From Escherichia coli (GTDB lineage: Bacteria > Pseudomonadota > Gammaproteobacteria > Enterobacterales > Enterobacteriaceae), in assembly GCF_024223415.1 (NCBI RefSeq), contig NZ_CP100500.1: a stretch of 64,000 nucleotides of DNA. One strand, written 5' to 3'. The notes beneath the pieces were generated by a model. That model was not told the DNA's origin, did not search any database, and was given only the letters and a program-made list of their open reading frames with translations. Numbering within the stretch: the first letter of the stretch is position 1; each line of letters begins with the position of its first letter. The translations under genes were made by a program, and so were the position numbers. Of this stretch, positions 1 to 49,844 are shown one piece after another.

Positions 1-1
1 T

Positions 2-619
2 GAACTCTGCGCCCGGCTGGAAAAAAAGATCGCTTCGTTGCGCGTCGGACCTGGCCTGAACCAGACGCCAGAAAACGAGATGGGGCCGCTGATCTCCGCC
101 GCACACCGCAGCAAAGTGTTGGGCTATATCGACAGTGGCGAAGCTCAGGGGGCTAACCTGCGTGTGGACGGGCGTGGCCTCAGAGTGAAAGGGCACGAGC
201 AGGGCTATTTCGTTGGGCCGACTCTGTTCGATAACGTCACCCCGGAGATGACCATCTATAAAGAAGAAATTTTCGGACCGGTGCTTTCTGTGGTGCGCGT
301 AGCAGATTACGCCAGCGCGGTGGATCTGATTAACCGACACGAATATGGTAATGGCTCGGCCATTTTCACCCGTGACGGTGGCTGCGCACGCCGCTTTTGT
401 GAAGAGGTGCAGGCGGGTATGGTGGGGGTCAACGTGCCGATCCCGGTGCCAATGGCATTCCACTGTTTCGGTGGCTGGAAACGTTCCATTTTTGGCGCGC
501 TCAATGTTCACGGGAACGATGGCGTGCGTTTCTACACCCGAATGAAAACCATCACTGCACGCTGGCCGGAAATGCAGCAGGAGACAGGTGCAGCGTTCTC
601 CATGCCGACGCTGGGCTGA
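2..619 (+). CDS. iolA: methylmalonate-semialdehyde dehydrogenase, C-terminal part (5' end lies outside the window)
   Basis: Reading frame is open from the window edge; aldehyde-dehydrogenase C-terminal sequence; directly upstream of iolD. Confidence 0.8.
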
Positions 620-630
620 CAGGGGGTTTT

Positions 631-2556
631 ATGCAAACCGAACGTATGACTATGGCCCAGGCGCTGGTCAGATTTCTTAACCAACAATATGTTAGCGTTG
701 ATGGTAAAGAAACGCCCTTTGTGGAGGGCGTGGCAACGATCTTTGGGCACGGTAACGTGCTCGGTATCGGCCAGGCGCTGGAGCAGGATCCTGGTCATCT
801 GCAGGTGATGCAAGGCTGTAACGAGCAGGGGATTGCCCATATGGCGACGGGATTCGCCAAACAGCATCGCCGTCAGCGTATTTTTGCTGTCACCTCATCC
901 GTTGGGCCTGGCGCTGCCAATATGGTGACGGCGGCAGCGACGGCCACGGCGAACCGCATTCCACTGCTGCTACTGCCAGGGGATATCTACGCCTGCCGCC
1001 AGCCTGACCCCGTGTTGCAGCAGATCGAGCAGTATCACGATCTCAGCATCAGTACCAACGATTGCTTCCGCCCGGTTTCCCGCTACTGGGACCGCATCAA
1101 CCGTCCTGAACAGCTTATGAGCGCGATGTTAAGTGCGATGCGAACGCTTACTGACCCCGCAAATACAGGAGCGGTGACCATTTGCCTACCTCAGGATGTG
1201 CAGGGGGAGGCCTGGGATTACCCCCTGAGTTTCTTTGCGCGTCGGGTGCATCATATTGAACGCCGTCCGCCTGACCCGCAGCGACTGGCGCAGGCTCATG
1301 CATTGATTTCCCGCAAGCGCCGTCCACTGGTGGTGTGCGGCGGTGGCGTGCGTTACTCCGGTGCGCATGAGGCGTTACGGGAATTTGTTGAAGTGCTGCA
1401 ATTGCCGTTTGCCGAAACCCAGGCCGGTAAGGGGGCGCTGGTAAGTGACCACCCGCTTAATCTGGGCGGGGTGGGCGTGACGGGCGGAATGGCTGCCAAC
1501 CAGCTTGCGCCGCAGGCTGACTTAGTGATTGGCATCGGCACGCGCCTGACGGATTTTACTACCGGCTCTAAGGCGCTCTTTTCTCATCCCGACGTCGAGT
1601 TCCTGCTGCTGAACGTGGCTGAGTTTGACTCCCTGAAGCTGGATGCCACCGCGCTCATTGCCGATGCCCGAACTGGTCTGACAGCGTTGACCCACGCACT
1701 GAAAGATTATCGTAGTGGCTGGGGGGAGGCGATTGCCCATGCGAAATCCGCTTGGCACGATGAATGCTGTCGACTGTGGGAACGCCAGTGGCATCCTGAC
1801 GACGTTCCCGAAGTGGCAGGGCACCTTGATGCACAGCTAATGGAATACGGTGAAACGCTCAACACACACCTGACCCAGACGCGGGTGTTGGGGCTCATTA
1901 ACCAGCATATTGAGGATAACGCCATTGTGGTGGGGGCGGCCGGATCGCTGCCAGGGGATTTGCAACGCCTCTGGCAGGTTAAAACGCCTGACAGTTACCA
2001 TCTGGAGTATGGTTACTCCTGCATGGGGTATGAGGTCGCAGCGGCTATTGGTGCGAAGCTGGCAAAACCTCAGCAGCCGGTGTATGCCATGGTAGGCGAT
2101 GGTTCGTACATGATGCTGCACTCAGAGCTGCAAACTGCCGTACAGGAGGGAATTAAGGTCACCATTCTGCTGTTTGATAACGCCAGCTTCGGCTGCATTA
2201 ATAACCTGCAGATGGGGCACGGAATGGGGAGTTTTGGCACAGAAAATCGTTACCGTAATCCGAAAACAGGTCAGCTTGACGGGCCGTTGGTGAAGGTCGA
2301 TTTTGCGCAAAACGCGGAAAGCTACGGTTGCCGCGCATGGCGGGTACATAATGAGAAAAGCCTGCTGGCGGCGCTGGAAGCCTCGCGCGCTCACCCGGGA
2401 CCGACGCTCCTCGATATCAAAGTGCTACCAAAAACCATGACCCATGATTACGCGTCATGGTGGCGAACCGGCAACGCACAGGTGGCAGAGTCGCCAGCAG
2501 TGCGCCAGGCCGCCGAGCAAACACAGGCTCAGGTGAAAAAAGCTCGTCAGTATTGA
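631..2556 (+). CDS. iolD: 3D-(3,5/4)-trihydroxycyclohexane-1,2-dione hydrolase (TPP enzyme)
   Basis: 641-aa ORF with thiamine-pyrophosphate enzyme architecture; GGGGG RBS 5 nt upstream of ATG; iol context. Confidence 0.85.
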
Positions 2557-2607
2557 GTTTTCCTGTCGTAACGAAATTTTCATTTCATTTTTCTTTTTTC
2601 CCCTCAC

Positions 2608-2638
2608 CCATCCCCTCTCCCAACGGGAGAGGGGATGG
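2608..2638 (+). terminator. GC-rich hairpin (CCATCCCCTCTCC / GGGAGAGGGGATGG) followed by T-rich tract
   Basis: Perfect 13-14 bp stem directly after the iolD stop; a second CCCTCC/GGAGGG hairpin follows at 2651-2677. Confidence 0.4.
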
Positions 2639-2840
2639 TACAGTTTTTATTCCCTCCCCCCCTTGTAATGGAGGGACATATCTTCCTCGGCGTTGTGAGA
2701 TTGATAACAAAATTTATCTAATACATCTCAAAAGTGTTAACTGGCACTCAAAATATAATTTTCACTATTTATAAAAATGAAATAAATGTTTTATTTGTAG
2801 TGTCGTTAGTTCACCGCATTCATCAACACCGGGAGCCGTT

Positions 2841-3827
2841 ATGTTTAACATTGCTTTACTGGGCGCTGGCCGAATTGGCCAGGTACATGCAGCTAACATC
2901 GCCAGCCATAGTGCGACCACGCTCTGGTCTGTGGTAGACCCGAATCAGGAGTTCGCCACGCGTCTAGCGACACAGTATCAGGCGCGCCAGCAGAGCCTGG
3001 ATGAGGCGATGACCGATCCGAACGTTCATGCCGTATTGATCGCCTCCGCGACCGACACCCACGCGGATCTGATTGAAATGGCCGCCCGTTACGGCAAAGC
3101 CATTTTCTGTGAAAAACCGGTACACCTTGATCTTGCCCGCGTACGCGACTGCCTGAAAGTGGTCAAAGAGTATGACGTACCGCTGTTTATCGGTTTTAAC
3201 CGCCGCTTTGACCCACAGTTCCGTCGCGTGAAAACCGACACTCAGGCCGGGCGTATCGGCAAACCGGAATCACTGCTGATCATCTCCCGCGATCCGTCTC
3301 CACCGCCTGCGGAGTACGTGCGTGTTTCCGGCGGCATGTTCCGTGATATGACCATCCACGACTTTGACATGGCACGCTTCATCATGGGTGAAGAGCCGGT
3401 GTCGGTGTATGCCCAGGGCAGCAATCTGGTGGATCCGGCGATTGGCGAAGCGGGAGATATCGACACCGCATTTATCGTTCTGAAATATGCCTCCGGCGCG
3501 ATGGCGACCATCGTCAACAGTCGCCGTTCTTCATACGGCTACGACCAGCGCCTGGAGCTACACGGTTCCGAAGGGCTGCTGTGCGCGGGCAATATCCTTG
3601 AAAACCAGGTGCAGCACTACGGCAAACAGGGTTGCACCAGCGCGCTGCCGGAACACTTCTTCCTGCAACGCTACAAATCCGCTTACGCAGCGGAATGGGA
3701 GCACTTTGTTGCGGTTCTGCGCGGCGAAGCGGTGCCTGATTGCAGCGGCGATGATGGTGAACGTGCGCTGTACCTCGCGGATAAAGCGCTGGAATCACTG
3801 CGTTGCCAGCGTGAGATCGTCCTCTAA
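2841..3827 (+). CDS. iolG: myo-inositol 2-dehydrogenase (Gfo/Idh/MocA family)
   Basis: N-terminal Rossmann motif LLGAGRIGQVHA; 328 aa; iol context. Confidence 0.8.
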   Translation: MFNIALLGAGRIGQVHAANIASHSATTLWSVVDPNQEFATRLATQYQARQQSLDEAMTDPNVHAVLIASATDTHADLIEMAARYGKAIFCEKPVHLDLARVRDCLKVVKEYDVPLFIGFNRRFDPQFRRVKTDTQAGRIGKPESLLIISRDPSPPPAEYVRVSGGMFRDMTIHDFDMARFIMGEEPVSVYAQGSNLVDPAIGEAGDIDTAFIVLKYASGAMATIVNSRRSSYGYDQRLELHGSEGLLCAGNILENQVQHYGKQGCTSALPEHFFLQRYKSAYAAEWEHFVAVLRGEAVPDCSGDDGERALYLADKALESLRCQREIVL

Positions 3828-3858: not shown

Positions 3859-4788
3859 ATGAAAAAACTGATCTTAGCCGCCCTAATCGCCATGACATCC
3901 GGGGCCGCCATAGCCGAAAACGAGCAAATTGTTTTCAGTACGCCAAACCTGGCCATGCCGTTTGAAGTTCACATGCAGCGCACGGCGGTGAAAGCCGCAA
4001 AAGAGATGGGGGTGAAACTTCAGGTACTGGACGGTCAGGGCAGCTCACCGAAGCAGGTGGCTGACCTGGAAAACGCCATCACCCGTGGTGCGCAGGGCTT
4101 TATCGTCTCCCCGAACGATGTGAACGCGGTCTCCAGTGTGGTAGATGAAATTCAGGATACGAAGCTGCCGGTCGTTACGCTTGACCGCTCTGTCGACAGC
4201 CAGAAAAAAGTGCCGCACTTTGGTGCCAACAACTACAAGGGCGGCCAGGCGATTGGCGACTTCGTCAAAACCAAATTCCCCAACGGCGCGGAGATCATTC
4301 TGTTGACCGGTCAACCGGGTTCCTCCTCCAACATTGAACGCACCAAAGGGATCCGTGACAGCCTGAAGGCTGGCGGGGATATGTACAAGATCGTCGCCGA
4401 TCAGACCGGCAACTGGATGCGCTCGGAAGGGATGCGCATTGTCGAAAGCGTTTTGCCGTCGCTGCCAAAACGTCCTCAGGTGATCCTCTCTGCCAACGAT
4501 GATATGGCGCTGGGGGCGATTGAAGCGCTGCAGAGTCAGGGTGTGAAACCGGGTGAAATCCTGGTCACCGGTTTTGATGCGGTACCGGAAGCACTGGCCC
4601 GCGTGCGCGACGGCTGGCTGGCGGTTACGGCGGATCAGCGTCCCGGCTTTGCGGTGACCACGGCGATGAGCCAACTGGTGGCTAACGTGCGTGAGAAAAA
4701 AACTATCACCGGGGCGGACTATCCGCCGACGCTGATCACCAAAGAGAACCTGCAACAGGCTGAGCGTATTGCTGAGGCCGGTAACTGA
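3859..4788 (+). CDS. periplasmic sugar-binding protein of an ABC transporter
   Basis: Signal peptide MKKLILAALIAMTSGAAIA then periplasmic binding protein fold; start chosen at ATG 3859, not the long track ORF that overlaps iolG. Confidence 0.8.
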   Translation: MKKLILAALIAMTSGAAIAENEQIVFSTPNLAMPFEVHMQRTAVKAAKEMGVKLQVLDGQGSSPKQVADLENAITRGAQGFIVSPNDVNAVSSVVDEIQDTKLPVVTLDRSVDSQKKVPHFGANNYKGGQAIGDFVKTKFPNGAEIILLTGQPGSSSNIERTKGIRDSLKAGGDMYKIVADQTGNWMRSEGMRIVESVLPSLPKRPQVILSANDDMALGAIEALQSQGVKPGEILVTGFDAVPEALARVRDGWLAVTADQRPGFAVTTAMSQLVANVREKKTITGADYPPTLITKENLQQAERIAEAGN

Positions 4789-4839: not shown

Positions 4840-6062
4840 ATGTCGCAACCCTTACTGAAAGTAACCGACCTGGCAAAAAGCTTTTCCGGCGTATGGGCGC
4901 TGAGCAGCGCCCAGCTCACCGTCGGCACGGGTGAAATTCACGCTTTGCTGGGCGAAAACGGCGCTGGGAAATCCACGCTGTTGAAGGCACTCGCGGGCGC
5001 ACAGCCACAAACGCGCGGGGAGATCTGGTTCAATGGCGAAACGCTGCCGGTGGACGACTCCCCGGTAGAACGGCAGAACAAGGGCATTATCACCATCTAT
5101 CAGGAATTCAACCTGCTGCCCAATATGACCGTTGCGGAAAACATGTTTCTCGGACGCGAACCGCGTAAACGTAACCTGATCGTCGACGAAAAAGCGGTCA
5201 ATCAGGAAGCGCAGGTGATTCTCGATTATCTGCAGCTGAATGTCGCACCCACCACGCCAGTCGCCCGTCTGAGCGTGGCCCAGCAGCAGATGGTGGAGAT
5301 TGCCCGGGCGCTGACCCTCAATGCCAGGCTGATCATCATGGATGAACCCTCCGCCGCCCTGAGTGACAGCGAGGTGGAAAGCCTGCACCGCGTGGTGCGG
5401 GAGCTTAAAAACCGCGGCGTGAGCATTATTTACGTTACTCACCGTCTGCATGAAGTTTTCCAGCTTTGCGATCGTTTCACCGTTTTCCAGGATGGCCGTT
5501 TCACCGGCACCGGCGCAGTGACGGAGACGAACGTAGAGCAGTTGATCCGCCTGATGGTAGGGCGTGATGTGGCCTTTAACCGCCGCCCTGCCAGCGAAAC
5601 CCACCATGAAGACAAACCTGTCCGTTTGTCGGTGAAGGGGTTAAGCCGGGAAAAACCGCCGCTGGATCCACACGGCATCGCCCTGCATGACATCAGTTTT
5701 CACGTCCATGCAGGGGAAGTTCTGGGTATCGCTGGGCTGGTGGGGGCTGGTCGTACTGAGGTAGCGCGCTGCCTGTTTGGCGCCGACGCCTTTACCACCG
5801 GCAGCTTTGAGCTGGACGGCGTGCCGTACCAGCCGCGTGACCCACTTTATGCGCTGGAGCAAGGGCTGGCGCTGGTGCCGGAAGATCGCAAAAAAGAGGG
5901 GGCGGTGCTGGGTCTGTCGATTCGCGACAACCTGTCGCTCTCCTGCCTCTCCTCGCTGTTGCAGTGGCGCTGGTTTGTGAATACCCGCAAAGAGGACGAC
6001 CTGATTGAGTCCTACCGCCAGGCGCTGCAGATCAAAATGGTCAACAGCACGCAAGAGGTGCG
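4840..6062 (+). pseudogene. sugar ABC transporter ATP-binding protein, 5' part, interrupted by prophage insertion
   Basis: Walker A GENGAGKST, first signature and second Walker A present; homology stops after ...STQEVR at the prophage end; the 3' part resumes at 43682. Confidence 0.85.
6057..6062. repeat. target-site duplication, left copy (GGTGCG; exact length 5 or 6 bp)
   Basis: Both prophage junctions share the octamer AGGTGCGT; duplicated bases flank the element. Confidence 0.6.
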
Positions 6063-6140
6063 TGATGCGCCGCGCGATAAATGCGCTCTATCTTGTGCGA
6101 TAAATGACAACCAATCGGCGTTTCATTATTTGAAAAAGAA
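6063..6140. repeat. prophage end on the gin side (attR-like) with transposase-binding-type motifs
   Basis: TGATGCGCCGCGCGATAAATG...GCGATAAATG plus CGTTTCATTATTTGAAAAAG resembling the Mu end consensus; mirrored at the other end. Confidence 0.6.
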
Positions 6141-6700
6141 TTACATTTCAGGTTGCGTTATGACTGTCCCAGCGGGGTGATAGCGGTAGATCGTTGACAG
6201 TCCAATATCATAGATAATTACCAGCCGCTTTCTGTCATACCCTTTCTGGAGCAATCTTGCGATCTGCTCATGCTGCTCCTTCGTCAGTTTCGGGCGACGC
6301 CCTCCAACTCTCCCTTGTGCTCGCGCAGCAGTCAGTCCTGCCAGCGTGCGCTCAACTATCAGTTCACGTTCCATTTCTGCCAGTGCACCCATCATATGAA
6401 AAAAAGAACCTTCCCATCGGAGTGCTGGTATCGATTAAATCCGTCAGACTGCGAAAATTGACACCTTTTGCGCGTAGCTCTTCTGTGAGCGAAATGAGGT
6501 GTTTCATTCTTCTACCCAACCGTTACAGCTTCCAGACCACCAATGTATCCCCTCTTTTAAGGCACCTTAAAGCGCGTTTCAGGCCTGGTCGTTGCGACTT
6601 AGTTCCGCTCATTTGTCCTCAAAAATTTGTTCACATCCTGCGCACATTAATACATTGCGTTTTGGTCATTTGTTGACACACGTATGTAGCCAATCAGCAT
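6141..6700 (-). pseudogene. gin: Gin/Pin-family serine DNA invertase, inactivated
   Basis: Translation gives MLIGYIRVSTNDQN, CAGCEQIFEDK, RPGLKRAL..GDTLVVWKL, HLISL..GRFFF and the C-terminal HTH in different frames; in-frame TAA, a 7-A homopolymer frameshift (6399-6405) and further indels. Confidence 0.8.
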
Positions 6701-6770
6701 CAAAAACACTCCCTTTTGAGTGGTTAAAGTAGTGAGATAATGTGGGGAAGATTTGAGAGATAACCCGCCC

Positions 6771-6803
6771 CCGCAATATCGCATTTAACTATATTGTGAG
6801 GGC
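6771..6803. repeat. 33-bp inverted repeat, copy A
   Basis: CCGCAATATCGCATTTAACTATATTGTGAGGGC; 31 of 33 identical to the reverse complement of 7437-7469. Confidence 0.7.
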
Positions 6804-6815
6804 GCGTGATACCGT

Positions 6816-7430
6816 TCAGCCAGCAAGCGCCAGTGGCGCTTCCGGCCAGCTGATTTCAGGTGCCTTGCTGATATCCAGTGCGTTCAGATCGTCGATATAA
6901 TCCAGCACGGCATTCAGTTTTGCCGTTTCTTCTGGTGTCAGACTGCGACCTGCCCGCAACTTAAGGTTGATGAGGTCGATGGACTTCATCGCCTGATCCA
7001 CCCGTTCCTGGCGTTGCTGTCTGGCAACCTCCAGCTCTTCGGCTTGCTGCCGTTCTGTATCGGTTACCCACGCCTCACCGTTCCAGGTATCCCATGGTGT
7101 GGCAGGCTGTTTTGTCGTTGTCCCTTCCGGGTAGTCACCTGGTTGGGTAATCTGGACCGGATTACCGTTCTCTGTGCTGTATACCGTCTCTCCACGATGA
7201 TCGGGGACATACTCCCACCCGTCCAGCGTGGACGTCCGGCAAATCACGTAACCCGGCATTGCCTCTGGCGGGGCATCGGCGCATGAATGTGCCGGGGTAC
7301 CCACCCCCAGGGCCAGATACTCCACAGAGGATGAGGTGTATTCCCGGGTTTCCTCATCATAGTGATATACAGTGATATCGCCTGCGAAAGTGGCGATACC
7401 GTTTTCATCCAGAACTGCAGTGTTACTCAT
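6816..7430 (-). CDS. tail fibre assembly protein (Mu U-like)
   Basis: 204-aa tail fibre assembly protein sequence; start ATG overlaps the tail-fibre stop (TAATG). Confidence 0.8.
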   Translation of the reverse strand: MSNTAVLDENGIATFAGDITVYHYDEETREYTSSSVEYLALGVGTPAHSCADAPPEAMPGYVICRTSTLDGWEYVPDHRGETVYSTENGNPVQITQPGDYPEGTTTKQPATPWDTWNGEAWVTDTERQQAEELEVARQQRQERVDQAMKSIDLINLKLRAGRSLTPEETAKLNAVLDYIDDLNALDISKAPEISWPEAPLALAG

Positions 7431-9268: not shown

Positions 9269-9270
9269 AA

Positions 9271-38994: not shown

Positions 38995-39021
38995 TCAGCA
39001 CAACCGGAGAAATCATAAAAT

Positions 39022-40113: not shown

Positions 40114-40122
40114 GGGTGCGGC

Positions 40123-40645: not shown

Positions 40646-41329
40646 ATGACAGACCAGAATAAACACATTGAGAAACTGAAAAAGTTGCTGGCGCTGGCCG
40701 CATCCGGCAACCCGCATGAGGCTGCTCTGGCACTGCGCCGCGCCCGTAAACTGATGGATGTTCACGGCATCACACATTCCGACATCGCCATGAGTGATAT
40801 TGATGAAACCATCAGTCACTACTGGCCGACAGGCAGCCTCCGTCCGCCGCGCTACATGCCAGGGCTGATGAACATCATCCGCGAGGCATTTGGTGTTAAC
40901 TCCATCATTCACCCCGGCACATATCCGGGTGTGGGGTTCTACGGCAAACGGGAACGGGCCGCACTGGCCGCGTACACCTGGGAAGTGCTGGCCCGTCAGC
41001 TGAAAAAGGCGCGTCAGCAGTATATCAGTGCACAGAACAAAAGAATAAAAACCGCCACCCGCACCAGCCGTGGAGACCAGTTTGCTGAAGGCTGGGTGCT
41101 GGCCGTTATCAGTGAAATACAGTCCTTCGCCCTGACCAATGACGAACGTGAACTGATGCAGCAGTGGCTGGAACATAAATACCCGCAGACGCAAACCACC
41201 AGGGCGCGTAAACCGGGAAGAAGTCGCAATGGCGACGCCTCGCGCTATGCGGGGTTTCGAGAAGGGCAGAACGTCAGACTGCACCGACCGGTCAGTGGGC
41301 GGGAACAGCAGAAACTGGAGGCCAGATGA
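40646..41329 (+). CDS. hypothetical early protein with conserved N-terminal helical domain
   Basis: Start at ATG 40646; N-terminal IEKLKKLLALAASGNPHEAALALRRARKLM. Confidence 0.55.
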   Translation: MTDQNKHIEKLKKLLALAASGNPHEAALALRRARKLMDVHGITHSDIAMSDIDETISHYWPTGSLRPPRYMPGLMNIIREAFGVNSIIHPGTYPGVGFYGKRERAALAAYTWEVLARQLKKARQQYISAQNKRIKTATRTSRGDQFAEGWVLAVISEIQSFALTNDERELMQQWLEHKYPQTQTTRARKPGRSRNGDASRYAGFREGQNVRLHRPVSGREQQKLEAR

Positions 41330-41556
41330 TGACGTTATCAGGTAACAGCCGGAAATTAAAAGCCTGCCGAATATCTGCCAGATACCTTTTTGCCCGCGCC
41401 TTTTTTAAGAACGTCAGGCCGGGGATCACAATTGGTGTTATTGCCGGACGCGAACAGGTTGAAAAATACATGTCAGGTGCATGGTGGAATAAAGACCCTG
41501 TCATTGCTGCCCGTAATATTCATATCAGTTGGGGAGATATTCAGAATGACTGCTGA
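41326..41556 (+). CDS. hypothetical small protein
   Basis: 76-aa ORF; weak support. Confidence 0.35.
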   Translation: MMTLSGNSRKLKACRISARYLFARAFFKNVRPGITIGVIAGREQVEKYMSGAWWNKDPVIAARNIHISWGDIQNDC

Positions 41557-41761
41557 ATCTGTTGTATGTGCCCTGTTCTGGTATTGTTTTGTCGGTTGGT
41601 GTACTGCTGAACTGCACCGCCGTTCAGGGTTTTATTCACGTTACAGTGGTGCCGGTTACTGGATTAGCTGGTCGGTGATGTTCCTGTGCTGGCCTGTGGC
41701 ATTTCCTTTATATGTCGATTATATCGGTGATGCAGGCAGAAGGAGCAACGATGATGACTAA
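41546..41761 (+). CDS. small membrane protein
   Basis: GGGGAG RBS; two hydrophobic helices in 71 aa. Confidence 0.45.
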   Translation: MTAESVVCALFWYCFVGWCTAELHRRSGFYSRYSGAGYWISWSVMFLCWPVAFPLYVDYIGDAGRRSNDDD

Positions 41762-42203
41762 ACAACGTCTTATCCAGCTTATCCATATTGCCCGTAATGA
41801 ACTGGGTATGGATGAAGACACCTACCGCCAGATGTTACAGGGGCTGACCGGTAAAGCCTCAACCAAAGGAATGGATACCACACAACTAAACTGCGTGCTG
41901 GAATCCATGAAAAGGAAAGGCTTTCGCGTTAAGCCTGCCGGAAAAGCCAGCTCCGGTTTACCGCTGGATAACCATCCGCAGTCCAGGAAAATCCGTGCGC
42001 TATGGCTTGAAATGGCTGCTGCCGGCATTGTTCGTGACCGTTCAGAAAATGCATTAGCGCGGTGGATCAAGCGGGAAACGGGCATCAGCGCCCTGCGCTG
42101 GCTCAATACTGAACAGGCAAGCAGTGTTATTGAGAAACTGAAGAAGTGGCAGCACAGAGCTGCGGGAGTAAAACATGAGCGACCTGAATCAGTTTCGAAG
42201 TAA
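41751..42203 (+). CDS. gemA: GemA-like regulatory protein (Mu gp16 family)
   Basis: AGGAG RBS before ATG 41751; GemA-family N-terminal sequence; directly upstream of mor. Confidence 0.7.
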   Translation: MMTKQRLIQLIHIARNELGMDEDTYRQMLQGLTGKASTKGMDTTQLNCVLESMKRKGFRVKPAGKASSGLPLDNHPQSRKIRALWLEMAAAGIVRDRSENALARWIKRETGISALRWLNTEQASSVIEKLKKWQHRAAGVKHERPESVSK

Positions 42204-42573
42204 AGGGCCGGAACTCCTGGTGGAGCTGGCACAGCATACCTCTGAGACCGTTCGCGAGATTATTGATATTGAGCCCGCAATTGCCGACCAGATTGGTCAG
42301 GCCGTCGCGAACCGAATGATGCAGGTCTGGGGCGGGCAAAACGTTTATTTCCCGATGGGCATGGTATGGAAGGTCAGTCAGCGCGACCGGGAAATCTTCA
42401 GGGAGTTTAACGGACGCAACCACCACGAACTGGCCCGCAAGTTTGGTGTTTCGCTTCAGTGGGTCTACAGCGTGGTTAAGCGGGTCAGAAAAGAAGAACT
42501 GGATCGGATGCAGGGCAGGTTGTTTGATGAAGATCTGCCAGAGGAGACGAAAGACGTTAACAAATCCAGATAA
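42175..42573 (+). CDS. mor: Mor-family transcriptional activator
   Basis: 132 aa; C-terminal ..FNGRNHHELARKFGVSLQWVYSVVKR.. parallels Mu Mor (..FNGRNVSELTTRYGVTFNTVYKAIRR..). Confidence 0.75.
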   Translation: MSDLNQFRSKGPELLVELAQHTSETVREIIDIEPAIADQIGQAVANRMMQVWGGQNVYFPMGMVWKVSQRDREIFREFNGRNHHELARKFGVSLQWVYSVVKRVRKEELDRMQGRLFDEDLPEETKDVNKSR

Positions 42574-42618
42574 TTCCTGCTTGTTAAAGTCCTTTCAAAA
42601 ATCTCCTTATTGTATAAA

Positions 42619-42650
42619 AGCACGGTAGACCCCGTACCGTGCTTTTTTTA
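42619..42650 (+). terminator. rho-independent terminator
   Basis: AGCACGGTA-loop-TACCGTGCT stem followed by 7 T. Confidence 0.6.
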
Positions 42651-42687
42651 TGCTCTCTCTTTAGTATTCAGGATGCAGGGAGAAAAT

Positions 42688-43320
42688 ATGTTTGACGTTT
42701 CGTTGTTAAATCTGCCATGGGCAACACTGGTGACCCTGACCAGTGGCTATATTGGGTATTTTATTGCGAATGTGGGACTGAAGGATCACCACAAGCCCAT
42801 TGAGGTGACTTTTTCTTCGCTGATTTTTGGCCTGACAGCAATGATGGCTTACCAGGCTGTTATGTGGGCAGGTCTGAATGCCTGGCTGGCAACACCACCA
42901 GCACTTCTGTGTGCCGTTACATGCGGTGCGTGGTGGCGCAGGTACGGTCGCAAATGGATGTACAGATTACTGTGGAATAATGATATTTCATGGTCTGACG
43001 ATACCAGCTCAGCATGGCAGGCAATGTTTGATCAAACAGGCTTCAGCGTTACCGAGGTCAGAGTGATTCTTCGCGATGGTTCCGGTATGATGTCACGGCT
43101 GCCAGGGAACTTTGAACAGTGGCCTAACGGTCCGTTTACCCTGGGGAATAAAGGCGATATGGTTCTTTACGTCACGCACAGCAGCCCTTCAGGCAGTAAC
43201 GAATGGGAAGAGTATAAAGGCGTGGTTGATAAGTACTGGGGAGCTCTGGCAACCTATATTCCAGCAGATCAGATTGCCAGAGTGGAGATCAGGCGCGTTC
43301 GTGCAACGAACGATGAATGA
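42688..43320 (+). CDS. membrane protein of unknown function (moron candidate)
   Basis: 210 aa; 2-3 N-terminal TM helices plus soluble C-terminal domain; downstream of the mor terminator, about 360 bp from the prophage end. Confidence 0.6.
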   Translation: MFDVSLLNLPWATLVTLTSGYIGYFIANVGLKDHHKPIEVTFSSLIFGLTAMMAYQAVMWAGLNAWLATPPALLCAVTCGAWWRRYGRKWMYRLLWNNDISWSDDTSSAWQAMFDQTGFSVTEVRVILRDGSGMMSRLPGNFEQWPNGPFTLGNKGDMVLYVTHSSPSGSNEWEEYKGVVDKYWGALATYIPADQIARVEIRRVRATNDE

Positions 43321-43599
43321 TGTTTATTTTTTCCCTGGGGCAGGGGCTGCCGGCATAGTGGTTTTATTGGCAGAGGAAGACGATTCTCCTTTTCTACCGG
43401 AATCGCGCTCGAACGTCACGATGTGCTTGCTTTTGGGATTTTCTGAGTAATCCAGGCTATCATGCTTATTGTTTTGAGTAGTCATTGGAATCATCCTTTT
43501 TGTTGCGGGTCATGTTTCAGCAAACTCGATTCTAAGTTGCCAGGAAGGATGATTTCAATGCCCGACTTATCTATCGTATAGCGGAAAAGAATTTCAGTT

Positions 43600-43681
43600 C
43601 TGTTCACCAGAACCCATGTTAACCCACTCCAATTCGTTATTTATCTCACGGATCCCCCTTCATTTATCTCATGTCTGATCA
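43600..43681. repeat. prophage end distal to gin, with transposase-binding-type motifs
   Basis: Reverse complement reads TGATCAGACATGAGATAAATG...GTGAGATAAATA, mirroring the other end (TGAT, 9 nt, GATAAATG, 15 nt, GATAAAT). Confidence 0.55.
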
Positions 43682-43687
43682 GGTGCG
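43682..43687. repeat. target-site duplication, right copy (GGTGCG)
   Basis: Matches 6057-6062. Confidence 0.6.
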
Positions 43688-44012
43688 TAAGCTCTCTGGC
43701 GGCAACCAGCAGAAAGTTATCCTCGCGCGCTGCATGGCGCTCAATCCACGGGTGTTGATTGTCGATGAGCCGACGCGTGGCATCGACGTTGGAACCAAAT
43801 CGGAAGTGCACCAGGTGTTGTTTGATATGGCGAAAAAGGGCGTGGCGGTGATCGTGATCTCCTCCGATCTGCTTGAAGTGATGGCGGTGTCTGACCGGAT
43901 CATCACCCTTAGTGAAGGCCGGTTAACTGGCGAGATCCACGGTGACGACGCTAACGAAGAACGGCTGATGACGATGATGGCTATCAACCACAACGCCCTG
44001 AACGCGGCATAA
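43682..44012 (+). pseudogene. sugar ABC transporter ATP-binding protein, 3' part
   Basis: Begins in frame with the second ABC signature (LSGGNQQKV) and Walker B (LIVDEPT); continues the ORF broken at 6062. Confidence 0.85.
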
Positions 44013-44023: not shown

Positions 44024-45052
44024 ATGACGCAGATGATTCCTAAAACGCAGGTCCCGGTAAAACGCGTCGGACGCATCGATCCCATTGCCTTCTTCGAGCG
44101 CTTCGGGGTACTGATTTTCATGATCCTGCTGCTGATCTTCTTTCAGTCGCAGAACAGTAATTTTTTCTCTGAACGCAATATTTTCAACATCCTGACCGAA
44201 GTCTCCATCTACGGGATCATGGCCGTGGGGATGACCTTCGTCATTCTGACCGCTGGGATCGACCTCTCCGTGGGCTCTATTCTGGCAGTGTGCGCCATGA
44301 CAGCGGCGTACGTGATCAAAGGCGACAATTTCACCACAGTCGATCCGAACGCTTGGGGCGGTATGAGCTGGCTGATTGGGCTGGGGATTTGTCTGACCAT
44401 GGGTACAGCGATTGGCTTCCTGCACGGTCTGGGCGTCACTCGCCTGCGCCTACCACCGTTCATCGTCACCCTTGGCGGGATGACCATCTGGCGTGGTCTG
44501 ACGCTCGTGATTAACGACGGTGCGCCGATTGCCGGCTTCGATCAGGGTTATCGCTGGTGGGGACGAGGGGAATTGCTCGGCATCTCCATTCCGATCTGGA
44601 TCTTCGCCATCGTTGCCATTGGTGGTTATCTGGCACTGCATAAAACCCGTTGGGGGCGCTTCGTCTATGCCATCGGTGGCAACCCGGAGGCGGCACGTCT
44701 GGCTGGGGTAAACGTGAAGCGTGTGCTGGTTAGCGTCTATGTGCTGATTGGCTGTCTGGCGGGGCTGGCGGGCTTCATCCTGAGCGCTCGTCTGGGGAGC
44801 GCTGAGGCGGTTGCCGGGATCTCCTTTGAGCTGCGTGTTATTGCCTCGGTGGTTATTGGCGGCACGTCGTTGATGGGGGGATATGGGCGCATCGGCGGCA
44901 CTATCATCGGCTCCATCATCATGGGCATTCTGATTAATGGCCTGGTACTGATGAACGTCTCGGCCTACTACCAGCAAATTATCACCGGATTAATTATCGT
45001 TCTGGCGGTGGCATTCGACACCTATGCCAAGAGCCGTCGCGGCGCACTGTGA
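44024..45052 (+). CDS. sugar ABC transporter permease
   Basis: 342 aa; multiple TM helices; RbsC-type permease sequence. Confidence 0.85.
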   Translation: MTQMIPKTQVPVKRVGRIDPIAFFERFGVLIFMILLLIFFQSQNSNFFSERNIFNILTEVSIYGIMAVGMTFVILTAGIDLSVGSILAVCAMTAAYVIKGDNFTTVDPNAWGGMSWLIGLGICLTMGTAIGFLHGLGVTRLRLPPFIVTLGGMTIWRGLTLVINDGAPIAGFDQGYRWWGRGELLGISIPIWIFAIVAIGGYLALHKTRWGRFVYAIGGNPEAARLAGVNVKRVLVSVYVLIGCLAGLAGFILSARLGSAEAVAGISFELRVIASVVIGGTSLMGGYGRIGGTIIGSIIMGILINGLVLMNVSAYYQQIITGLIIVLAVAFDTYAKSRRGAL

Positions 45053-45060: not shown

Positions 45061-46194
45061 ATGAAAGAGGTTCGTATTGGATTGATTGGCACCGGGTATA
45101 TTGGCAAGGCGCATGCCATTGCCTATGCCCAGGCACCGACGGTGTTCAATCTGCGCGGCAAACTGGTGCGCGAGATGGTGGCTGAGGTGAACCCGGCGCT
45201 GGCGGCAGAACGCGCGCAGGCGTTTGGCTTCAATCGCTCAACCGGAGACTGGCGGGTGCTCGTGGCCGACCCGGCCATTGATGTGGTGGATATTTGCTCC
45301 CCTAACCATCTTCACAAAGAGATGGCGCTGGAGGCGATCCGCCACGGCAAGCACGTCTATTCGGAAAAGCCGCTGGCACTGAATGCCCACGACGCGCGTG
45401 AGATGGTCGACGCTGCGAAGCGGGCAGGGGTGAAAACGCTGGTGGGTTTCAATTACATGAAAAACCCGACGGCACAGTTGGCGAAAGAGATTATTGCGCG
45501 CGGCGAAATTGGTGAGGTGATCCACTTCTACGGAACCCACAACGAAGACTATATGGCCGACCCGCTTTCCCCTATTCACTGGCACTGTTTTAAAGAGACC
45601 GCCGGACTGGGGGCTCTGGGTGACTTGGCGGCACATATCGTCAATATGGCCCAGTATCTGGTGGGAGAGATTGAGCAGGTCTGTGGCGATCTGAAAATTG
45701 TGGTGCCGGCACGTCCGGCAAAGGCCGGATCGTCGGAAATGGTCACCGTGGAAAATGAAGATCAGGCCCACGCGATGGTGCGCTTTGCGGGCGGGGCGCA
45801 GGGCGTCATTGAAACTTCCCGCGTCGCCTGCGGCCGCAAGATGGGGCTGTCATATGTCATTACTGGTACCAAAGGAGCGATCAGTTTTACCCAAGAGCGG
45901 ATGGCAGAGATAAAGCTCTATCTACATGATGATCCGGTGAACCGTCAGGGGTTCCGGACACTGTTGGTCGGTCCGGCACACCCGGATTACGGCGCGTTTT
46001 GCATGGGCGCAGGTCATGGTATCGGCTTTAACGATCAAAAAACGGTGGAAGTGCGTGATCTGGTAGACGGCATTGCCACCGACGCACCGATGTGGCCGGA
46101 CTTCGAAGAGGGCTGGAAGGTCTCGCGCGTGCTGGATGCCATCGCACTCTCACACCAGCAGGGCCTCTGGCTGAACGTGAATGACATTGTCTGA
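45061..46194 (+). CDS. Gfo/Idh/MocA-family oxidoreductase (inositol dehydrogenase-like)
   Basis: Rossmann motif GLIGTGYIGKAH; GAGGA RBS before ATG 45061. Confidence 0.8.
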   Translation: MKEVRIGLIGTGYIGKAHAIAYAQAPTVFNLRGKLVREMVAEVNPALAAERAQAFGFNRSTGDWRVLVADPAIDVVDICSPNHLHKEMALEAIRHGKHVYSEKPLALNAHDAREMVDAAKRAGVKTLVGFNYMKNPTAQLAKEIIARGEIGEVIHFYGTHNEDYMADPLSPIHWHCFKETAGLGALGDLAAHIVNMAQYLVGEIEQVCGDLKIVVPARPAKAGSSEMVTVENEDQAHAMVRFAGGAQGVIETSRVACGRKMGLSYVITGTKGAISFTQERMAEIKLYLHDDPVNRQGFRTLLVGPAHPDYGAFCMGAGHGIGFNDQKTVEVRDLVDGIATDAPMWPDFEEGWKVSRVLDAIALSHQQGLWLNVNDIV

Positions 46195-46206: not shown

Positions 46207-48111
46207 GTGGAAAAGCAGTTTGATGTGATATGCATGGGCCGCGTGGCGGTAGACCTCTACAGCCAGCAAATTGGTGCCCGCCTGGAGGATGTGTCGAGCT
46301 TCGCCAAATATCTCGGCGGCTCGTCCGGCAACGTGGCGTACGGTACCGCGCGTCAGGGCTTACGCTCGTCAATGCTGGCGCGCGTTGGCGATGAACATAT
46401 GGGGCGCTTCCTGCGGGAAGAGTTAAACCAGGTGGGCTGCGATACCAGCCATCTGATCACCGATAAAGAACGCCTTACGGCGCTGGTGCTACTCGGCATT
46501 AAAGACCGGGACACCTTTCCTCTGATTTTTTATCGCGATAACTGCGCGGATATGGCGATTACTGCCAGCGATGTGGACGAAAGCTACATTGCCTCCGCAC
46601 GGTGTATTGCCATCACCGGGACTCACCTTTCTCACCCGCAGACCCGCGAGGCGGTGCTGACGGCGCTGAATTACGCCCGCCGTCACGGCGTGCGCACGGT
46701 GCTGGACATCGACTACCGTCCGGTGCTGTGGGGACTAACCTCTCTAGGAGACGGCGAAACGCGTTTTATCGTTGCCGAACAGGTTACCCGTGAACTTCAG
46801 GAGGTGCTACACCTTTTCGACGTCGTTGTCGGCACCGAAGAGGAGTTTCACATTGCGGGGGGCAGCACCGATACGTTGCAGGCGCTGGCGCAGGTGCGCC
46901 ACGTCAGCAAGGCGACACTGGTTTGCAAGCGCGGCGCGCTGGGCTGTTCGGTGTATACCGATGCCATTCCACCTCGGCTGGATGACGGTCTGACGGTGAC
47001 CGGCGTGCGTGTGGAGGTGCTTAACGTCCTTGGCGCGGGAGATGCGTTTATGTCTGGCCTGCTGCGCGGTTACCTGAACGACGAGGGCTGGGAGCAGGCG
47101 TGCCGCTACGCCAACGCCTGTGGGGCGCTGGTGGTCTCGCGCCACGGCTGTGCACCGGCGATGCCGAGCAAAATTGAGCTGGATGATTACCTCTCCCGCG
47201 CCGCGCTCGTTCCGCGCCCGGACATTGACCCGCGTCTTAACCATCTGCACCGGGTGACCACCCGCCGCCGCGAATGGCCGGAGCTGTGCGTGATGGCGTT
47301 CGATCACCGCAGTCAACTGGAAGATATGGCGCTGCAGTGCGGCGCGTCGCTTAAGCGTATTCCGGCGCTGAAACAGCTGATCCTGCAGGCCAGCCGAGAG
47401 GCGGCAAGCTCTGCCGGGCTGGAGGGGAAAGCCGGCCTGCTGTGCGATGGCACCTTTGGTCAGGATGCGCTGAACGCCATTACCGGCGAAGGGTGGTGGA
47501 TTGGTCGTCCCATTGAACTGCCAGGCTCGCGTCCGCTGGAGATGGAGCACGGTAACATTGGTACCCAGCTTATCAGTTGGCCGCAGGAGCATGTGGTGAA
47601 GTGCCTGGTCTTTTTCCATCCGGAAGATGCCCACGGCTTGCGTCTGGAGCAGGAGCAGAAAATCGCCGAGGTGTACCACGCCTGCTGTCAGTCCGGACAT
47701 GAACTGCTGCTGGAGGTGATATTACCCGCCACTATGCCGCGCAGTGACGAACTTTATCTGCGTGCCATTTCCCGCTTCTACAACCTTGGCATTTACCCCG
47801 ACTGGTGGAAACTGCCGCCGCTCTCCGCCGAAGGCTGGACGGCACTGAGCGAGATTATCGCGCGCCGGGACCCGCACTGCCGCGGCGTGGTGATCCTCGG
47901 TCTGGATGCTCCGGCGGAACAGCTGCGTGCCGACTTCAAAGCTGCCGCGGGGCAGGCGCTGGTGAAAGGCTTCGCCGTGGGGCGCACGCTGTTTGGCGAT
48001 GCCTCCCGCGCATGGCTGAAACACGATATTGACGATGCGCAGCTGGTGGCGCGCATCCGGGACAACTACCTGCAGCTTATCGCCTGGTGGCGCGAGCGCG
48101 GACACGCATAA
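46207..48111 (+). CDS. iolC: 5-dehydro-2-deoxygluconokinase (PfkB kinase with C-terminal extension)
   Basis: 634 aa; PfkB motifs (GGxxxN, VLGAGDAF); GTG start with AGAGGG RBS. Confidence 0.8.
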   Translation: MEKQFDVICMGRVAVDLYSQQIGARLEDVSSFAKYLGGSSGNVAYGTARQGLRSSMLARVGDEHMGRFLREELNQVGCDTSHLITDKERLTALVLLGIKDRDTFPLIFYRDNCADMAITASDVDESYIASARCIAITGTHLSHPQTREAVLTALNYARRHGVRTVLDIDYRPVLWGLTSLGDGETRFIVAEQVTRELQEVLHLFDVVVGTEEEFHIAGGSTDTLQALAQVRHVSKATLVCKRGALGCSVYTDAIPPRLDDGLTVTGVRVEVLNVLGAGDAFMSGLLRGYLNDEGWEQACRYANACGALVVSRHGCAPAMPSKIELDDYLSRAALVPRPDIDPRLNHLHRVTTRRREWPELCVMAFDHRSQLEDMALQCGASLKRIPALKQLILQASREAASSAGLEGKAGLLCDGTFGQDALNAITGEGWWIGRPIELPGSRPLEMEHGNIGTQLISWPQEHVVKCLVFFHPEDAHGLRLEQEQKIAEVYHACCQSGHELLLEVILPATMPRSDELYLRAISRFYNLGIYPDWWKLPPLSAEGWTALSEIIARRDPHCRGVVILGLDAPAEQLRADFKAAAGQALVKGFAVGRTLFGDASRAWLKHDIDDAQLVARIRDNYLQLIAWWRERGHA

Positions 48112-48122
48112 TGGAGACGACA

Positions 48123-49013
48123 ATGAGTGTACAACTGGGCATCAACCCGCTGACGTGGACGAACGATGATCTGCCTTCACTGGGCGCGGAGACATCTCTG
48201 GAGACCTGCCTGAGTGAAGGGAAAGAGGCCGGTTTTGCCGGCTTCGAACTGGGCAATAAATTCCCGAGAGAAGCGCGCCTGCTCGGCCCCATTTTGCAGC
48301 GCCACGACCTGCAGTTGGTCTCCGGCTGGTATTCCGGCCGCCTGTTGGAACGCAGTGTAGAGGACGAGATTGCTGCTGTGCAGTCGCATCTGACGCTGCT
48401 GCGAGAGCTGGGTGCAAAAGTACTGGTTTTTGCGGAAGTGAGTGGCTGCATTCACGGTGAGCAGCAGACGCCGGTTCACCTGCGCCCACGTTTCCCGCAG
48501 GAATGCTGGAAAGAGTATGGTGAGAAACTCACCGTGTTCGCCCGCTATACGCAGCAACAGGGGGTACAGATTGCTTACCACCATCATATGGGCACGGTGA
48601 TTGAGTCCGCTCAAGACGTGGACAACCTGATGCTCCACACGGGTGAGGAGGTTGGTTTACTGCTGGATACTGGCCACCTGACCTTTGCCGGGGCCGATCC
48701 GCTGGCGGTGGCACAGCGATGGGCATCGCGCATCAATCATGTTCACTGCAAAGATGTGCGCGCCGACGTGCTGGCGGACGTCAAAAACCGTAAAACCAGC
48801 TTCCTCGACGCGGTGCTGAGCGGCGTGTTTACCGTGCCGGGTGACGGCTGCGTGGATTATCCGCCGATTATGCAACTGCTGAAAACGCAGGATTATCACG
48901 GTTGGCTGGTGGTGGAGGCTGAACAGGACCCGGCGATCGCCCATCCGCTGACCTACGCCCGTCTGGGATATAACAATCTGAGCCGCCTGGCGCGCGACGC
49001 CGGGCTTATCTGA
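48123..49013 (+). CDS. iolE: inosose dehydratase (xylose-isomerase-like TIM barrel)
   Basis: About 296 aa; start at ATG 48123 just after the iolC stop. Confidence 0.8.
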   Translation: MSVQLGINPLTWTNDDLPSLGAETSLETCLSEGKEAGFAGFELGNKFPREARLLGPILQRHDLQLVSGWYSGRLLERSVEDEIAAVQSHLTLLRELGAKVLVFAEVSGCIHGEQQTPVHLRPRFPQECWKEYGEKLTVFARYTQQQGVQIAYHHHMGTVIESAQDVDNLMLHTGEEVGLLLDTGHLTFAGADPLAVAQRWASRINHVHCKDVRADVLADVKNRKTSFLDAVLSGVFTVPGDGCVDYPPIMQLLKTQDYHGWLVVEAEQDPAIAHPLTYARLGYNNLSRLARDAGLI

Positions 49014-49022
49014 GGAGGTGAC

Positions 49023-49844
49023 ATGTCACGTCTGTTATCACGCTGGCAACAGCCGAACGCTGAGGGGCGGACTCAGTCTGTCACGCCGGAAAGCGCCGGA
49101 TGGGGATATGTTGGCTTTGAGGCCTATGAACTTGAGGAAGGGCAGCAACTGACGCTGCCCGCTGTCAGTGAAGAGCGCTGTCTGGTGCTGGTGGCCGGGC
49201 GCGCTTTCATCAGCACTCCTTCTGCACAGTTTATTGATATCGGGGAGCGGATGAGCCCGTTCGAGCGCATCAAACCTTGGGCGGTTTACGTCACCCCGCA
49301 GGAGGCAGTGCAGGTGAAGGCGCTGACGAAACTGGAGCTGGCAGTCTGTACCGCTCCGGGAAAAGGGACATACCCGACGCGGTTGATTGCACCTCAGGAT
49401 ATCGATGGCGAAGCGCGCGGTAACGGCCACAACCAGCGTTATGTGCATAATATTTTGCCGGAAGACAAGCCCGCTGACAGCCTGCTGGTCGTCGAGGTCT
49501 GGACCAACGAAGGCTGTACCAGTTCGTACCCGAGCCATAAACACGATACGAATAACCCGCCTCAGGAGAGCTATCTGGAGGAGACCTATTACCATCGCCT
49601 CAACCCGGAACAGGGGTTCTGCATGCAGCGGGTGTATACCGATGACCGCACACTTGATGAATGTATGGCGGTCTATAACCGTGACGTGGTCATGGTGCCG
49701 AAAGGGTACCACCCGGTGGCGACGATGGCCGGGTATGACAGTTATTACCTTAACGTGATGGCCGGACCAGTACGTAAATGGATATTCACCTGGGAAAAGG
49801 AACACTCATGGATAAACACAGAGTATTCTGCCATTTCTTTATAA
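49023..49844 (+). CDS. iolB: 5-deoxy-glucuronate isomerase
   Basis: 273 aa; IolB-type sequence; last gene of the cluster. Confidence 0.8.
   Translation: MSRLLSRWQQPNAEGRTQSVTPESAGWGYVGFEAYELEEGQQLTLPAVSEERCLVLVAGRAFISTPSAQFIDIGERMSPFERIKPWAVYVTPQEAVQVKALTKLELAVCTAPGKGTYPTRLIAPQDIDGEARGNGHNQRYVHNILPEDKPADSLLVVEVWTNEGCTSSYPSHKHDTNNPPQESYLEETYYHRLNPEQGFCMQRVYTDDRTLDECMAVYNRDVVMVPKGYHPVATMAGYDSYYLNVMAGPVRKWIFTWEKEHSWINTEYSAISL

Follow-up and report, generated by a model that had tools for sequence, protein, structure and literature searches.

A prophage of the BcepMu-like transposable type (Bcepmuvirus), and not of the integrase type, interrupts a myo-inositol (iol) locus in the 64,000-nucleotide stretch of an Escherichia coli chromosome analysed here (the window; contig NZ_CP100500.1), where it splits the ATPase gene of an ABC importer. 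The iol locus lies within the pheV tRNA island, adjoining yqgA-speC, and is best explained, with high confidence, as a complete, horizontally acquired myo-inositol catabolic locus. The overall account that we strongly favour is that insertion of the transposable phage leaves the importer dead, is polar on the distal iol genes and would not be reversed by excision, so that most of the pathway is very probably switched off.

Gene identities were called with NCBIfam equivalog models, scores being compared with the curated cut-offs. The locus comprises iolA (cut by the window edge), iolD, iolG, an importer of the IbpA/IatA/IatP type, a second Gfo/Idh/MocA dehydrogenase, an iolC/iolJ fusion, iolE and iolB, and all seven catabolic steps are represented by genes (iolG, iolE, iolD, iolB, iolC, iolJ and iolA). 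Outside the importer, the genes are placed as follows.

2..619, + strand, iolA, CoA-acylating methylmalonate-semialdehyde dehydrogenase, C-terminal 205 codons (TIGR01722, E = 8.6e-73)
631..2556, + strand, iolD (TIGR04377, 934 bits, cut-off 715)
2841..3827, + strand, iolG, inositol 2-dehydrogenase (TIGR04380, 443 bits, cut-off 355)
45061..46194, + strand, putative second Gfo/Idh/MocA dehydrogenase (below all equivalog cut-offs)
46207..48111, + strand, iolC/iolJ fusion, 5-dehydro-2-deoxygluconokinase / aldolase (NF047869, 942 bits, cut-off 600)
48123..49013, + strand, iolE (TIGR04379, 429 bits, cut-off 290)
49023..49844, + strand, iolB (TIGR04378, 320 bits, cut-off 205)

The iolA match covers the C-terminal 184 positions of TIGR01722 (294-477 of 477). 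The 5' end of the gene falls outside the window, the full-length gene measuring 1,506 nt in the uninterrupted locus. For the second dehydrogenase the top model was levoglucosan dehydrogenase, which scored 366 bits where its cut-off is 650. In strain CE0026f, which has the locus uninterrupted, iolR, encoding an RpiR/MurR-type repressor, is found upstream of iolA, a position that falls to the left of the window here. In an Rfam scan of the whole window the tRNA was the only match, and the iol region yielded neither a riboswitch nor a known small RNA. Because some related islands have an MFS transporter annotated, a second inositol transporter was sought in the window at 49845-60400, and none was found.

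The importer genes lie between iolG and the second dehydrogenase, and the ATPase gene is present in two parts.

3859..4788, + strand, periplasmic binding protein, IbpA-like (PDB 4rxm, E = 5e-135; 4irx, E = 1.1e-69)
4840..6062, + strand, 5' part of the ABC ATPase gene, IatA-like, 407 native codons (junction and reconstruction)
43688..44012, + strand, 3' part of the ABC ATPase gene, 107 codons and stop (junction and reconstruction)
44024..45052, + strand, ABC permease, IatP-like (profile match and uninterrupted-locus annotation)

The binding protein is homologous to 4rxm and to the Caulobacter protein 4irx across the full length of both matches, structures that we take to be complexes with myo-inositol. 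The 5' frame of the ATPase gene continues for 39 codons into the phage, up to 6180, and the 3' part starts just ahead of the LSGGNQQK signature of the second nucleotide-binding domain; the permease gene begins 11 nt after the ATPase gene. When reconstructed, the ATPase (515 aa) matches AraG/XylG/RbsA-type models from end to end and carries two nucleotide-binding domains. The layout is that of a binding protein, a fused two-domain ATPase and one permease in contiguous genes, apart from the physical split reported here, and homology and gene neighbourhood indicate that the substrate is very probably inositol.

The insert is flanked by a perfect 6-bp direct repeat.

6057..6062, unstranded, target-site duplication, left copy, GGTGCG (junction sequence)
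43682..43687, unstranded, target-site duplication, right copy, GGTGCG (junction sequence)

Removal of the prophage and one GGTGCG copy (6062 joined to 43688) yields the in-frame 515-aa ATPase and places the insertion point at codon 407/408; in uninterrupted loci the GGTGCG target is single-copy, and the ATPase gene is annotated there at 1,548 nt. Among 5,426 complete E. coli genomes, 51 carry a full-length (100%) match to a 1,400-nt reconstruction of the junction, 44 of these at ≥99% identity, and the reconstruction was 99.9% identical to the uninterrupted locus, while the whole rebuilt locus (12,260 nt) is collinear with that of strain CE0026f at 99.8% identity, with 0-3 residue differences per protein. 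The same insertion was sought in the 5,426 genomes and found in none, all junction matches being uninterrupted and none spanning a phage/host junction. A misassembly that placed in the iol locus a prophage really lying elsewhere in the genome has nothing specific in its favour beyond this rarity, and is contradicted by exact phage termini bordered by a perfect 6-bp duplication of a target that is single-copy in uninterrupted loci, and by the same signature at four independent insertions elsewhere; we consider such an error so improbable as to be negligible. The insertion is real, and is neither a chance resemblance nor an assembly artefact. Since the repeat is perfect and all other iol genes are intact, the event is in all likelihood recent, or has been neutral so far. 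The first-pass annotation had described a full catabolic set with a single transporter, the ATPase gene of which is split by a prophage. This description is borne out: the completeness of the set by the equivalog scores, the identity of the split gene as the ATPase of the sole transporter in the cluster by profile matches and the annotation of the uninterrupted locus, and the split itself by the junctions, the GGTGCG repeat and the in-frame reconstruction.

The assignment of the prophage to the BcepMu-like phages is based on its ends, gene order and closest relatives, and the elements that bear on it are listed below.

6063..43681, unstranded, BcepMu-like (Bcepmuvirus) transposable prophage, 37,619 bp (ends TGATGCG...CTGATCA)
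6141..6700 (end at 6700 approximate), - strand, Gin-like serine invertase pseudogene (two frameshifts and a 13-bp deletion, by alignment with the copy in strain Ec1117)
33527..34018, - strand, HTH_3 protein where the two gene clusters diverge (Pfam HTH_3)
35776..37545, + strand, phage DDE transposase (rve core; Mu-transposase domain not found)
37529..38722, + strand, AAA-type ATPase adjoining the transposase (AAA_22, E = 5e-20)

BcepMu-like viruses have their genes in two divergent clusters, carry a tail module of the P2 type and multiply by replicative transposition, without excision (Summer et al. 2004, as summarised in PMC2771037). The open reading frame map of the prophage, together with the annotation of its relatives, gives the same arrangement, with early genes, including the transposase, on the + strand (34201-43320) facing one end and late genes for lysis, head and P2-like tail on the - strand (6816-31177). 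Further features shared with this group are a Tn552/IS1604-type rve transposase in place of MuA (rve being the sole Pfam match of the 589-aa protein, E = 1e-8), TG...CA termini and many insertion sites. The adjoining AAA ATPase, annotated in relatives as ExeA family (1,167 nt), may fill a MuB-like role, the HTH_3 protein is a candidate phage repressor, and homologues of Gam, GemA and Mor are also encoded. Over 84% of its 12.5 kb, the early region is 95.6% identical to Escherichia phage PhiKM (PQ738613), the taxonomy line of which reads Bcepmuvirus. No integrase was detected within 6063-43681, at either end or elsewhere, among the open reading frames and Pfam matches; none is annotated in three related copies, and insertion sites vary between genomes. 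The sole site-specific recombinase is the small Gin-type invertase, here a pseudogene in which the Pfam matches are limited to HTH_7 and the final 29 positions of the Resolvase domain. The E. coli relatives differ from BcepMu in having this type of invertase and an invertible tail-fibre segment, a module that has decayed in the present copy, where a 423-bp deletion to the right of the invertase, up to ~6790, takes out the alternative tail-fibre segment relative to the Ec1117 copy. The large terminase, at 438 aa, is shorter than its 507-aa counterpart in strain Ec1117; a deletion was considered as the cause and rejected, as the alignment is that of a divergent allele with both terminase domains intact in Pfam.

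A 6-bp duplication accompanies each of five insertions of this phage type, all at separate loci (GGTGCG in iol, and GCTAGT, GAAAGC, GCGCGA and AATAGG). The right end of the prophage was matched in ~290 of the 5,426 complete genomes (155 records at ≥95% identity), and the best 25 right-end matches adjoin at least 10 different host genes. These properties recall phage Mu insertional mutagenesis of E. coli operons: in both, transposition into a gene is near-random and the target duplication is short, and the present case, as far as can be judged here, also shares the strong polarity on the distal genes and the lack of excision upon induction. It differs from Mu in the length of the duplication (6 bp, not 5 bp), an unrelated transposase and an early region in inverted arrangement. 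A 5-bp duplication as in Mu, with a phage end reading ...ATCAG, was rejected because the LR-31 site has A after ATCA, and this A is duplicated at the left flank. In a separate observation, the base joined to the right end (...ATCA) was G in 24 of the best 25 right-end matches, with no matching C at the left end; the single non-G site shows this base to be part of the target, not of the phage. An unusual, one-sided target preference may exist in the E. coli BcepMu-like phages, an idea that we offer only tentatively; if true, the two ends of a Tn552-type phage transpososome would read the target differently, a behaviour of which no description was found in the literature searched.

The organisation of the locus around the insertion bears directly on its consequences, and two further elements are relevant.

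2608..2638, + strand, terminator-like hairpin after iolD, 14 pairs (10 G-C) followed by a T run (predicted)
2775..2803, + strand, 29-nt A/T-rich motif ending TGTAGT upstream of iolG (candidate promoter or IolR operator)

The hairpin apparently marks the end of an iolA-iolD unit. The A/T-rich motif occurs once in the window and twice in the uninterrupted locus, upstream of iolA and upstream of iolG, with no copy downstream. Intergenic gaps downstream of the insertion are 8-12 nt, and simple consensus scans found neither a + strand sigma-70-like site in 43682-49844 nor a + strand promoter-like site in 43000-49844. Judged on spacing and such scans, which leave room for promoters inside coding sequence, the genes for iolG, the binding protein, the ATPase, the permease, the second dehydrogenase, iolC/J, iolE and iolB appear to form one eight-gene transcription unit, of which the ATPase gene would be the third.

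The phage is proposed to have transposed into the iatA-like ATPase gene, duplicating 6 bp of its target. In the truncated product, the first nucleotide-binding domain would be retained, as would Walker A of the second, but the signature motif, Walker B and switch regions of that second domain would be missing; because each ATP site draws on elements of both domains, the importer should be dead. In Caulobacter, in-frame deletion of iatA alone abolishes growth on inositol (PMC2597717). As the importer genes are embedded in what appears to be the catabolic operon, the insertion should also be polar on catabolism, the 37.6-kb insert, with its first 25 kb transcribed in the opposite direction, being expected to uncouple five distal genes (iatP, the second dehydrogenase, iolC/J, iolE and iolB) from the iolG promoter. 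With the catabolic genes iolC/J, iolE and iolB among these, a substitute transporter would not rescue growth, and we infer a strain unable to grow on myo-inositol whichever other transporters the cell has. Reversion through phage excision is not expected, since this phage type replicates by transposition, without integrase or excisionase.

Two milder outcomes were weighed against this account. The first-pass annotation had predicted that uptake alone would be lost or reduced, with working catabolic genes, possible substitution by another transporter and restoration of the ATPase gene, save for the duplicated bases, upon excision. In line with this, every catabolic gene is an intact open reading frame, and removal of the phage alone would leave the 6-bp duplication as two in-frame codons (Val-Arg) just before the signature motif. 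The damage to the transporter ATPase stands, but the predicted effect reaches catabolism, as the five distal genes are cut off from the only recognisable iol promoter region and have no recognisable promoter of their own. Recovery by excision is not supported: there is no integrase, the only site-specific recombinase is the Gin-type pseudogene, and the phage belongs to a group that replicates by transposition without excising (PMC2771037). A loss confined to uptake is accordingly improbable. Continued expression of the distal iol genes, driven by an internal promoter or by transcription entering from a phage gene active in the lysogen, is also rather unlikely; it would give a transport-negative and catabolically competent strain. 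The + strand early genes of the phage, among them the one at 42610-43320, are oriented towards the distal iol genes, with no + strand terminator predicted in 43320-43681, so some read-through into these genes is possible; the distal genes also show no decay. The early operons of Mu-type transposable phages are, however, repressed in lysogens, the scans give no promoter-like site of the kind required, and a recent insertion explains the absence of decay equally well. The combination of a dead importer with polarity on the distal genes therefore remains the preferred reading.

The uninterrupted form of this exact locus is present in the 51 complete E. coli genomes matched above, many of them from cattle, and iolABCDEG-iatA has been reported in calf E. 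coli (PMC10604827). Clusters of this kind in Enterobacterales, including a minority of E. coli, were described by Weber & Fuchs 2022 (PMC9430895), who found iol in <2% of 20,632 genomes. The cluster had been taken at first as accessory and absent from common laboratory E. coli; its accessory status agrees with both counts, but it is present in the widely used strain ATCC 8739. The present locus shares with the Enterobacterales clusters the enzyme set (iolG, E, D, B, C/J and A) and the accessory, island-borne status, and differs in being interrupted by a prophage. It also differs from the Salmonella/E. coli ED1a-type island in having an ABC importer, where that island reportedly uses IolT major-facilitator transporters. 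E. coli ED1a has a Salmonella-like iol cluster (PMC9430895). The importer itself resembles IbpA-IatA-IatP of Caulobacter crescentus (Boutte et al. 2008, PMC2597717; PDB 4irx) in its three contiguous genes, fused two-domain ATPase, single permease and binding proteins homologous over their full length (E = 1e-69). The Caulobacter transporter forms a separate operon away from the catabolic genes, in contrast to the arrangement here, and the E. coli system is a predicted inositol importer.

Earlier work has already described both mutagenesis by Mu-like phages and the iol cluster carried by a minority of E. coli, and the iol insertion itself, an ordinary gene disruption by a mutator phage, involves no novel biology and leaves current understanding unchanged. 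Its relevance lies mainly in annotation and phenotype prediction: a gene-content survey would score the strain as inositol-positive, all iol families being present, whereas the structure of the locus predicts a negative phenotype and no reversion through prophage loss. More broadly, the case shows accessory metabolic operons of natural E. coli being mutated by BcepMu-like transposable prophages.

The catabolic genes of the inositol cluster were identified with NCBIfam models (equivalog scores above the curated cut-offs, except for the partial iolA), and genes of the window cover seven of the seven catabolic steps of the iol pathway, in agreement with the complete set proposed by the first-pass annotation. 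Transporter genes lie between iolG and a second dehydrogenase gene; they encode a binding protein, an ABC ATPase with two domains and a single permease.

Features of the inositol cluster and of the right end of the window
First 619 bases, +, iolA, C-terminal part (profile match)
631-2556, +, iolD (equivalog above cut-off)
2608-2638, +, strong terminator-like hairpin 3' of iolD (14 pairs, then a T run)
2775-2803, +, 29-nt A/T-rich motif upstream of iolG, ending in -10-like TGTAGT
2841-3827, +, iolG (equivalog above cut-off)
3859-4788, +, periplasmic binding protein (matches PDB 4rxm, 4irx)
44024-45052, +, ABC permease, single gene
45061-46194, +, second dehydrogenase, Gfo/Idh/MocA protein (reaches no equivalog cut-off)
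46207-48111, +, iolC/iolJ fusion, kinase-aldolase (equivalog above cut-off)
48123-49013, +, iolE (equivalog above cut-off)
49023-49844, +, iolB (equivalog above cut-off)
56452-57375, +, 307-aa protein, no Pfam match, partner of the following gene
57344-58468, -, C-5 cytosine DNA methyltransferase, converging on and overlapping the preceding gene
59068-60282, -, P4-type tyrosine integrase, adjoining tRNA-Phe
60429-60504, -, tRNA-Phe (Rfam scan), adjoining yqgA/speC
60610-61317, -, yqgA, E. coli core gene
61632-63851, speC, E. coli core gene

The accessory status claimed for the cluster is borne out by its distribution. Among 5,426 complete E. coli genomes, 51 match a 1,400-nt reconstruction of the uninterrupted ATPase junction along its full length (≥99% identity in 44 of them), including many cattle isolates and ATCC 8739, and presence in a small minority (<2% of 20,632 genomes) is documented (PMC9430895). 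An iolABCDEG-iatA set is reported to be enriched in multidrug-resistant E. coli of dairy calves (PMC10604827). Since the order integrase, tRNA-Phe, yqgA, speC is identical in strains having this region in common, we assign all DNA left of the tRNA to a pheV-associated island of the E. coli chromosome; G+C content is 54–61% in the iol genes vs ~50% in the right-end core genes.

Remodelling of the island is evident 3' of iolB, where other strains have a hypothetical gene followed by one of MarR type. Here two insertion sequences come directly after iolB (50589-51862 and 52031-52728), one an IS2-like element of the IS3 family with orfA/orfB, and the other an IS1-like InsA/InsB pair. The island also encodes a phosphoethanolamine transferase homologue (54098-55771; Sulfatase domain, so annotated in related genomes), of a family with relatives able to modify lipid A. 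A 91-aa open frame (55868-56143, -) resembles the C terminus of a P4-type integrase and was probably left behind by an older island insertion, and the low-G+C (~37%) methyltransferase/307-aa gene pair (56452-58468) may constitute a type II restriction-modification system.

The split of the transporter gene by the prophage, as annotated earlier, is evident at both junctions: native ATPase sequence stops after 6062 and restarts at 43688, and GGTGCG flanks the insert on both sides (6057-6062 and 43682-43687). Deleting 6063-43687 restores an in-frame ATPase of 515 aa, whose junction joins STQEVR to KLSGGNQQK, where the second nucleotide-binding domain has its signature motif; the uninterrupted gene is annotated at 1,548 nt (515 codons). 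Over all 12,260 nt the reconstructed locus runs collinear with that of strain CE0026f at 99.8% identity; the proteins differ at 0–3 positions each, and none contains an internal stop. The same insertion was found in none of the 5,426 complete genomes; the event is specific to the strain or lineage and probably recent, because secondary decay is absent. Seven E. coli plasmid records hold a variant of the ATPase/permease segment at 80–90% identity, a plasmid-borne second transporter variant, and the whole iol cluster may be plasmid-borne there too.

The insert is a BcepMu-like transposable phage. Over 84% of 12.5 kb, the early region shares 95.6% identity with Escherichia phage PhiKM, recorded as a Bcepmuvirus, and it lies on the + strand, directed towards the right end; a 589-aa protein with an rve integrase core as sole Pfam match is followed by an AAA ATPase, and profile matches identify Mu Gam, GemA and Mor homologues. 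Holin, transglycosylase, terminase, portal, head and P2-like contractile tail genes occupy the - strand. This layout is that of BcepMu-like viruses, which replicate by transposition and have CA termini and a Tn552/IS1604-type transposase (PMC2771037). The prophage ends read TGATGCG... and ...CTGATCA, and near each tip a G(C/A)GATAAAT(G/A) repeat occurs twice.

All structural and early genes are open frames with lengths the same as or similar to those of relatives, except for the Gin-type invertase next to the left end (6141-6800, -), a pseudogene. Relative to the related prophage of E. coli strain Ec1117, it carries a 13-bp deletion and two frameshifts, +1 within an A run and -1 within a T run; the alternative, invertible tail-fibre segment lacks 423 bp. 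The two homopolymer changes could be sequencing errors, but the two deletions cannot, and tail-fibre switching has probably been lost. The large terminase (26949-28265, -) is far more divergent from the Ec1117 copy than are the flanking genes, which suggests mosaic replacement; both its domains are intact.

The first-pass annotation further proposed that excision would restore the gene. Both junctions were read for four related prophages in other E. coli genomes, which lie in a LysR-type pseudogene, the kbl/tdh junction, a fimbrial usher gene and yejF, each with its own 6-bp duplication (GCTAGT, GAAAGC, GCGCGA and AATAGG, one each), and the best 25 right-end matches adjoin at least 10 different host genes. 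Neither the window prophage nor its annotated relatives encode an integrase. This absence and the varied insertion sites speak for transposition and against site-specific integration, so the proposal does not fit the biology of the phage; BcepMu-like transposable phages do not excise upon induction. Only rarely, by accident, would the phage be lost precisely, and loss of the phage alone would leave six extra in-frame bases, adding Val-Arg just before the signature motif. A 6-bp target duplication is present at five of five E. coli BcepMu-like sites (the window and loci L003, L004, L005 and L007/L009 of other genomes). The first duplicated base, beside ...ATCA, is G in 24 of the best 25 right-end matches, and the single exception (LR-31, AATAGG) assigns this base to the target; the last, beside TGATG..., has no corresponding bias (G, T, C, A, G).

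The truncated ATPase comprises 407 native and 39 phage-encoded residues and retains domain 1 and Walker A of domain 2, without the signature, Walker B and switch regions of the latter. In ABC ATPases each ATP site pairs the Walker motifs of one domain with the signature of its partner, so both sites are left incomplete. At the right phage end an in-frame ATG (cATGtctgatcaGGTGCG...) opens a 113-codon frame for the C-terminal fragment (43671-44012), whose expression is unlikely, as its upstream sequence has no evident ribosome-binding site. Over its full length the binding protein matches PDB 4rxm (E = 5e-135) and 4irx of Caulobacter (E = 1.1e-69), both complexes with myo-inositol. The system is homologous to Caulobacter ibpA-iatA-iatP, the sole inositol importer there, where removing iatA alone by in-frame deletion prevents growth on inositol (PMC2597717). 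No other transporter genes lie between iolR and iolB in the uninterrupted E. coli locus, and no second transporter was found in the rest of the island inside the window.

The location of the insertion within the operon carries more weight, and the effect would probably not be restricted to uptake, as first annotated. We infer that iolG to iolB form one transcription unit, based on the hairpin after iolD, the placement of the 29-nt motif, gaps of 8–12 nt from the ATPase stop through iolB and the absence of promoter-like sites in a + strand scan of 43682-49844. A similar motif lies 5' of iolA in the uninterrupted locus, with no other copy within three mismatches; as the pattern was built from these two sites, only the missing third copy is informative. 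The insertion would place 37.6 kb, the first 25 kb of it transcribed opposite to the iol genes, between the promoter and iatP, the dehydrogenase, iolC/J, iolE and iolB. Because no + strand terminator is predicted in 43320-43681, phage genes that face the distal iol genes may read through into them. Separation from the promoter predicts loss of catabolism as well as uptake, in which case a substitute transporter would not help.

The earlier observation is therefore confirmed and its interpretation partly supported: it correctly described the iol cluster as accessory and the transporter gene as split, and the excision idea and an uptake-only effect are not supported. For Mu, operon mutagenesis by a transposable phage is textbook material. 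BcepMu-like phages and their insertion mode are likewise documented (PMC2771037), and the finding is an ordinary one, its novelty limited to one particular insertion event.
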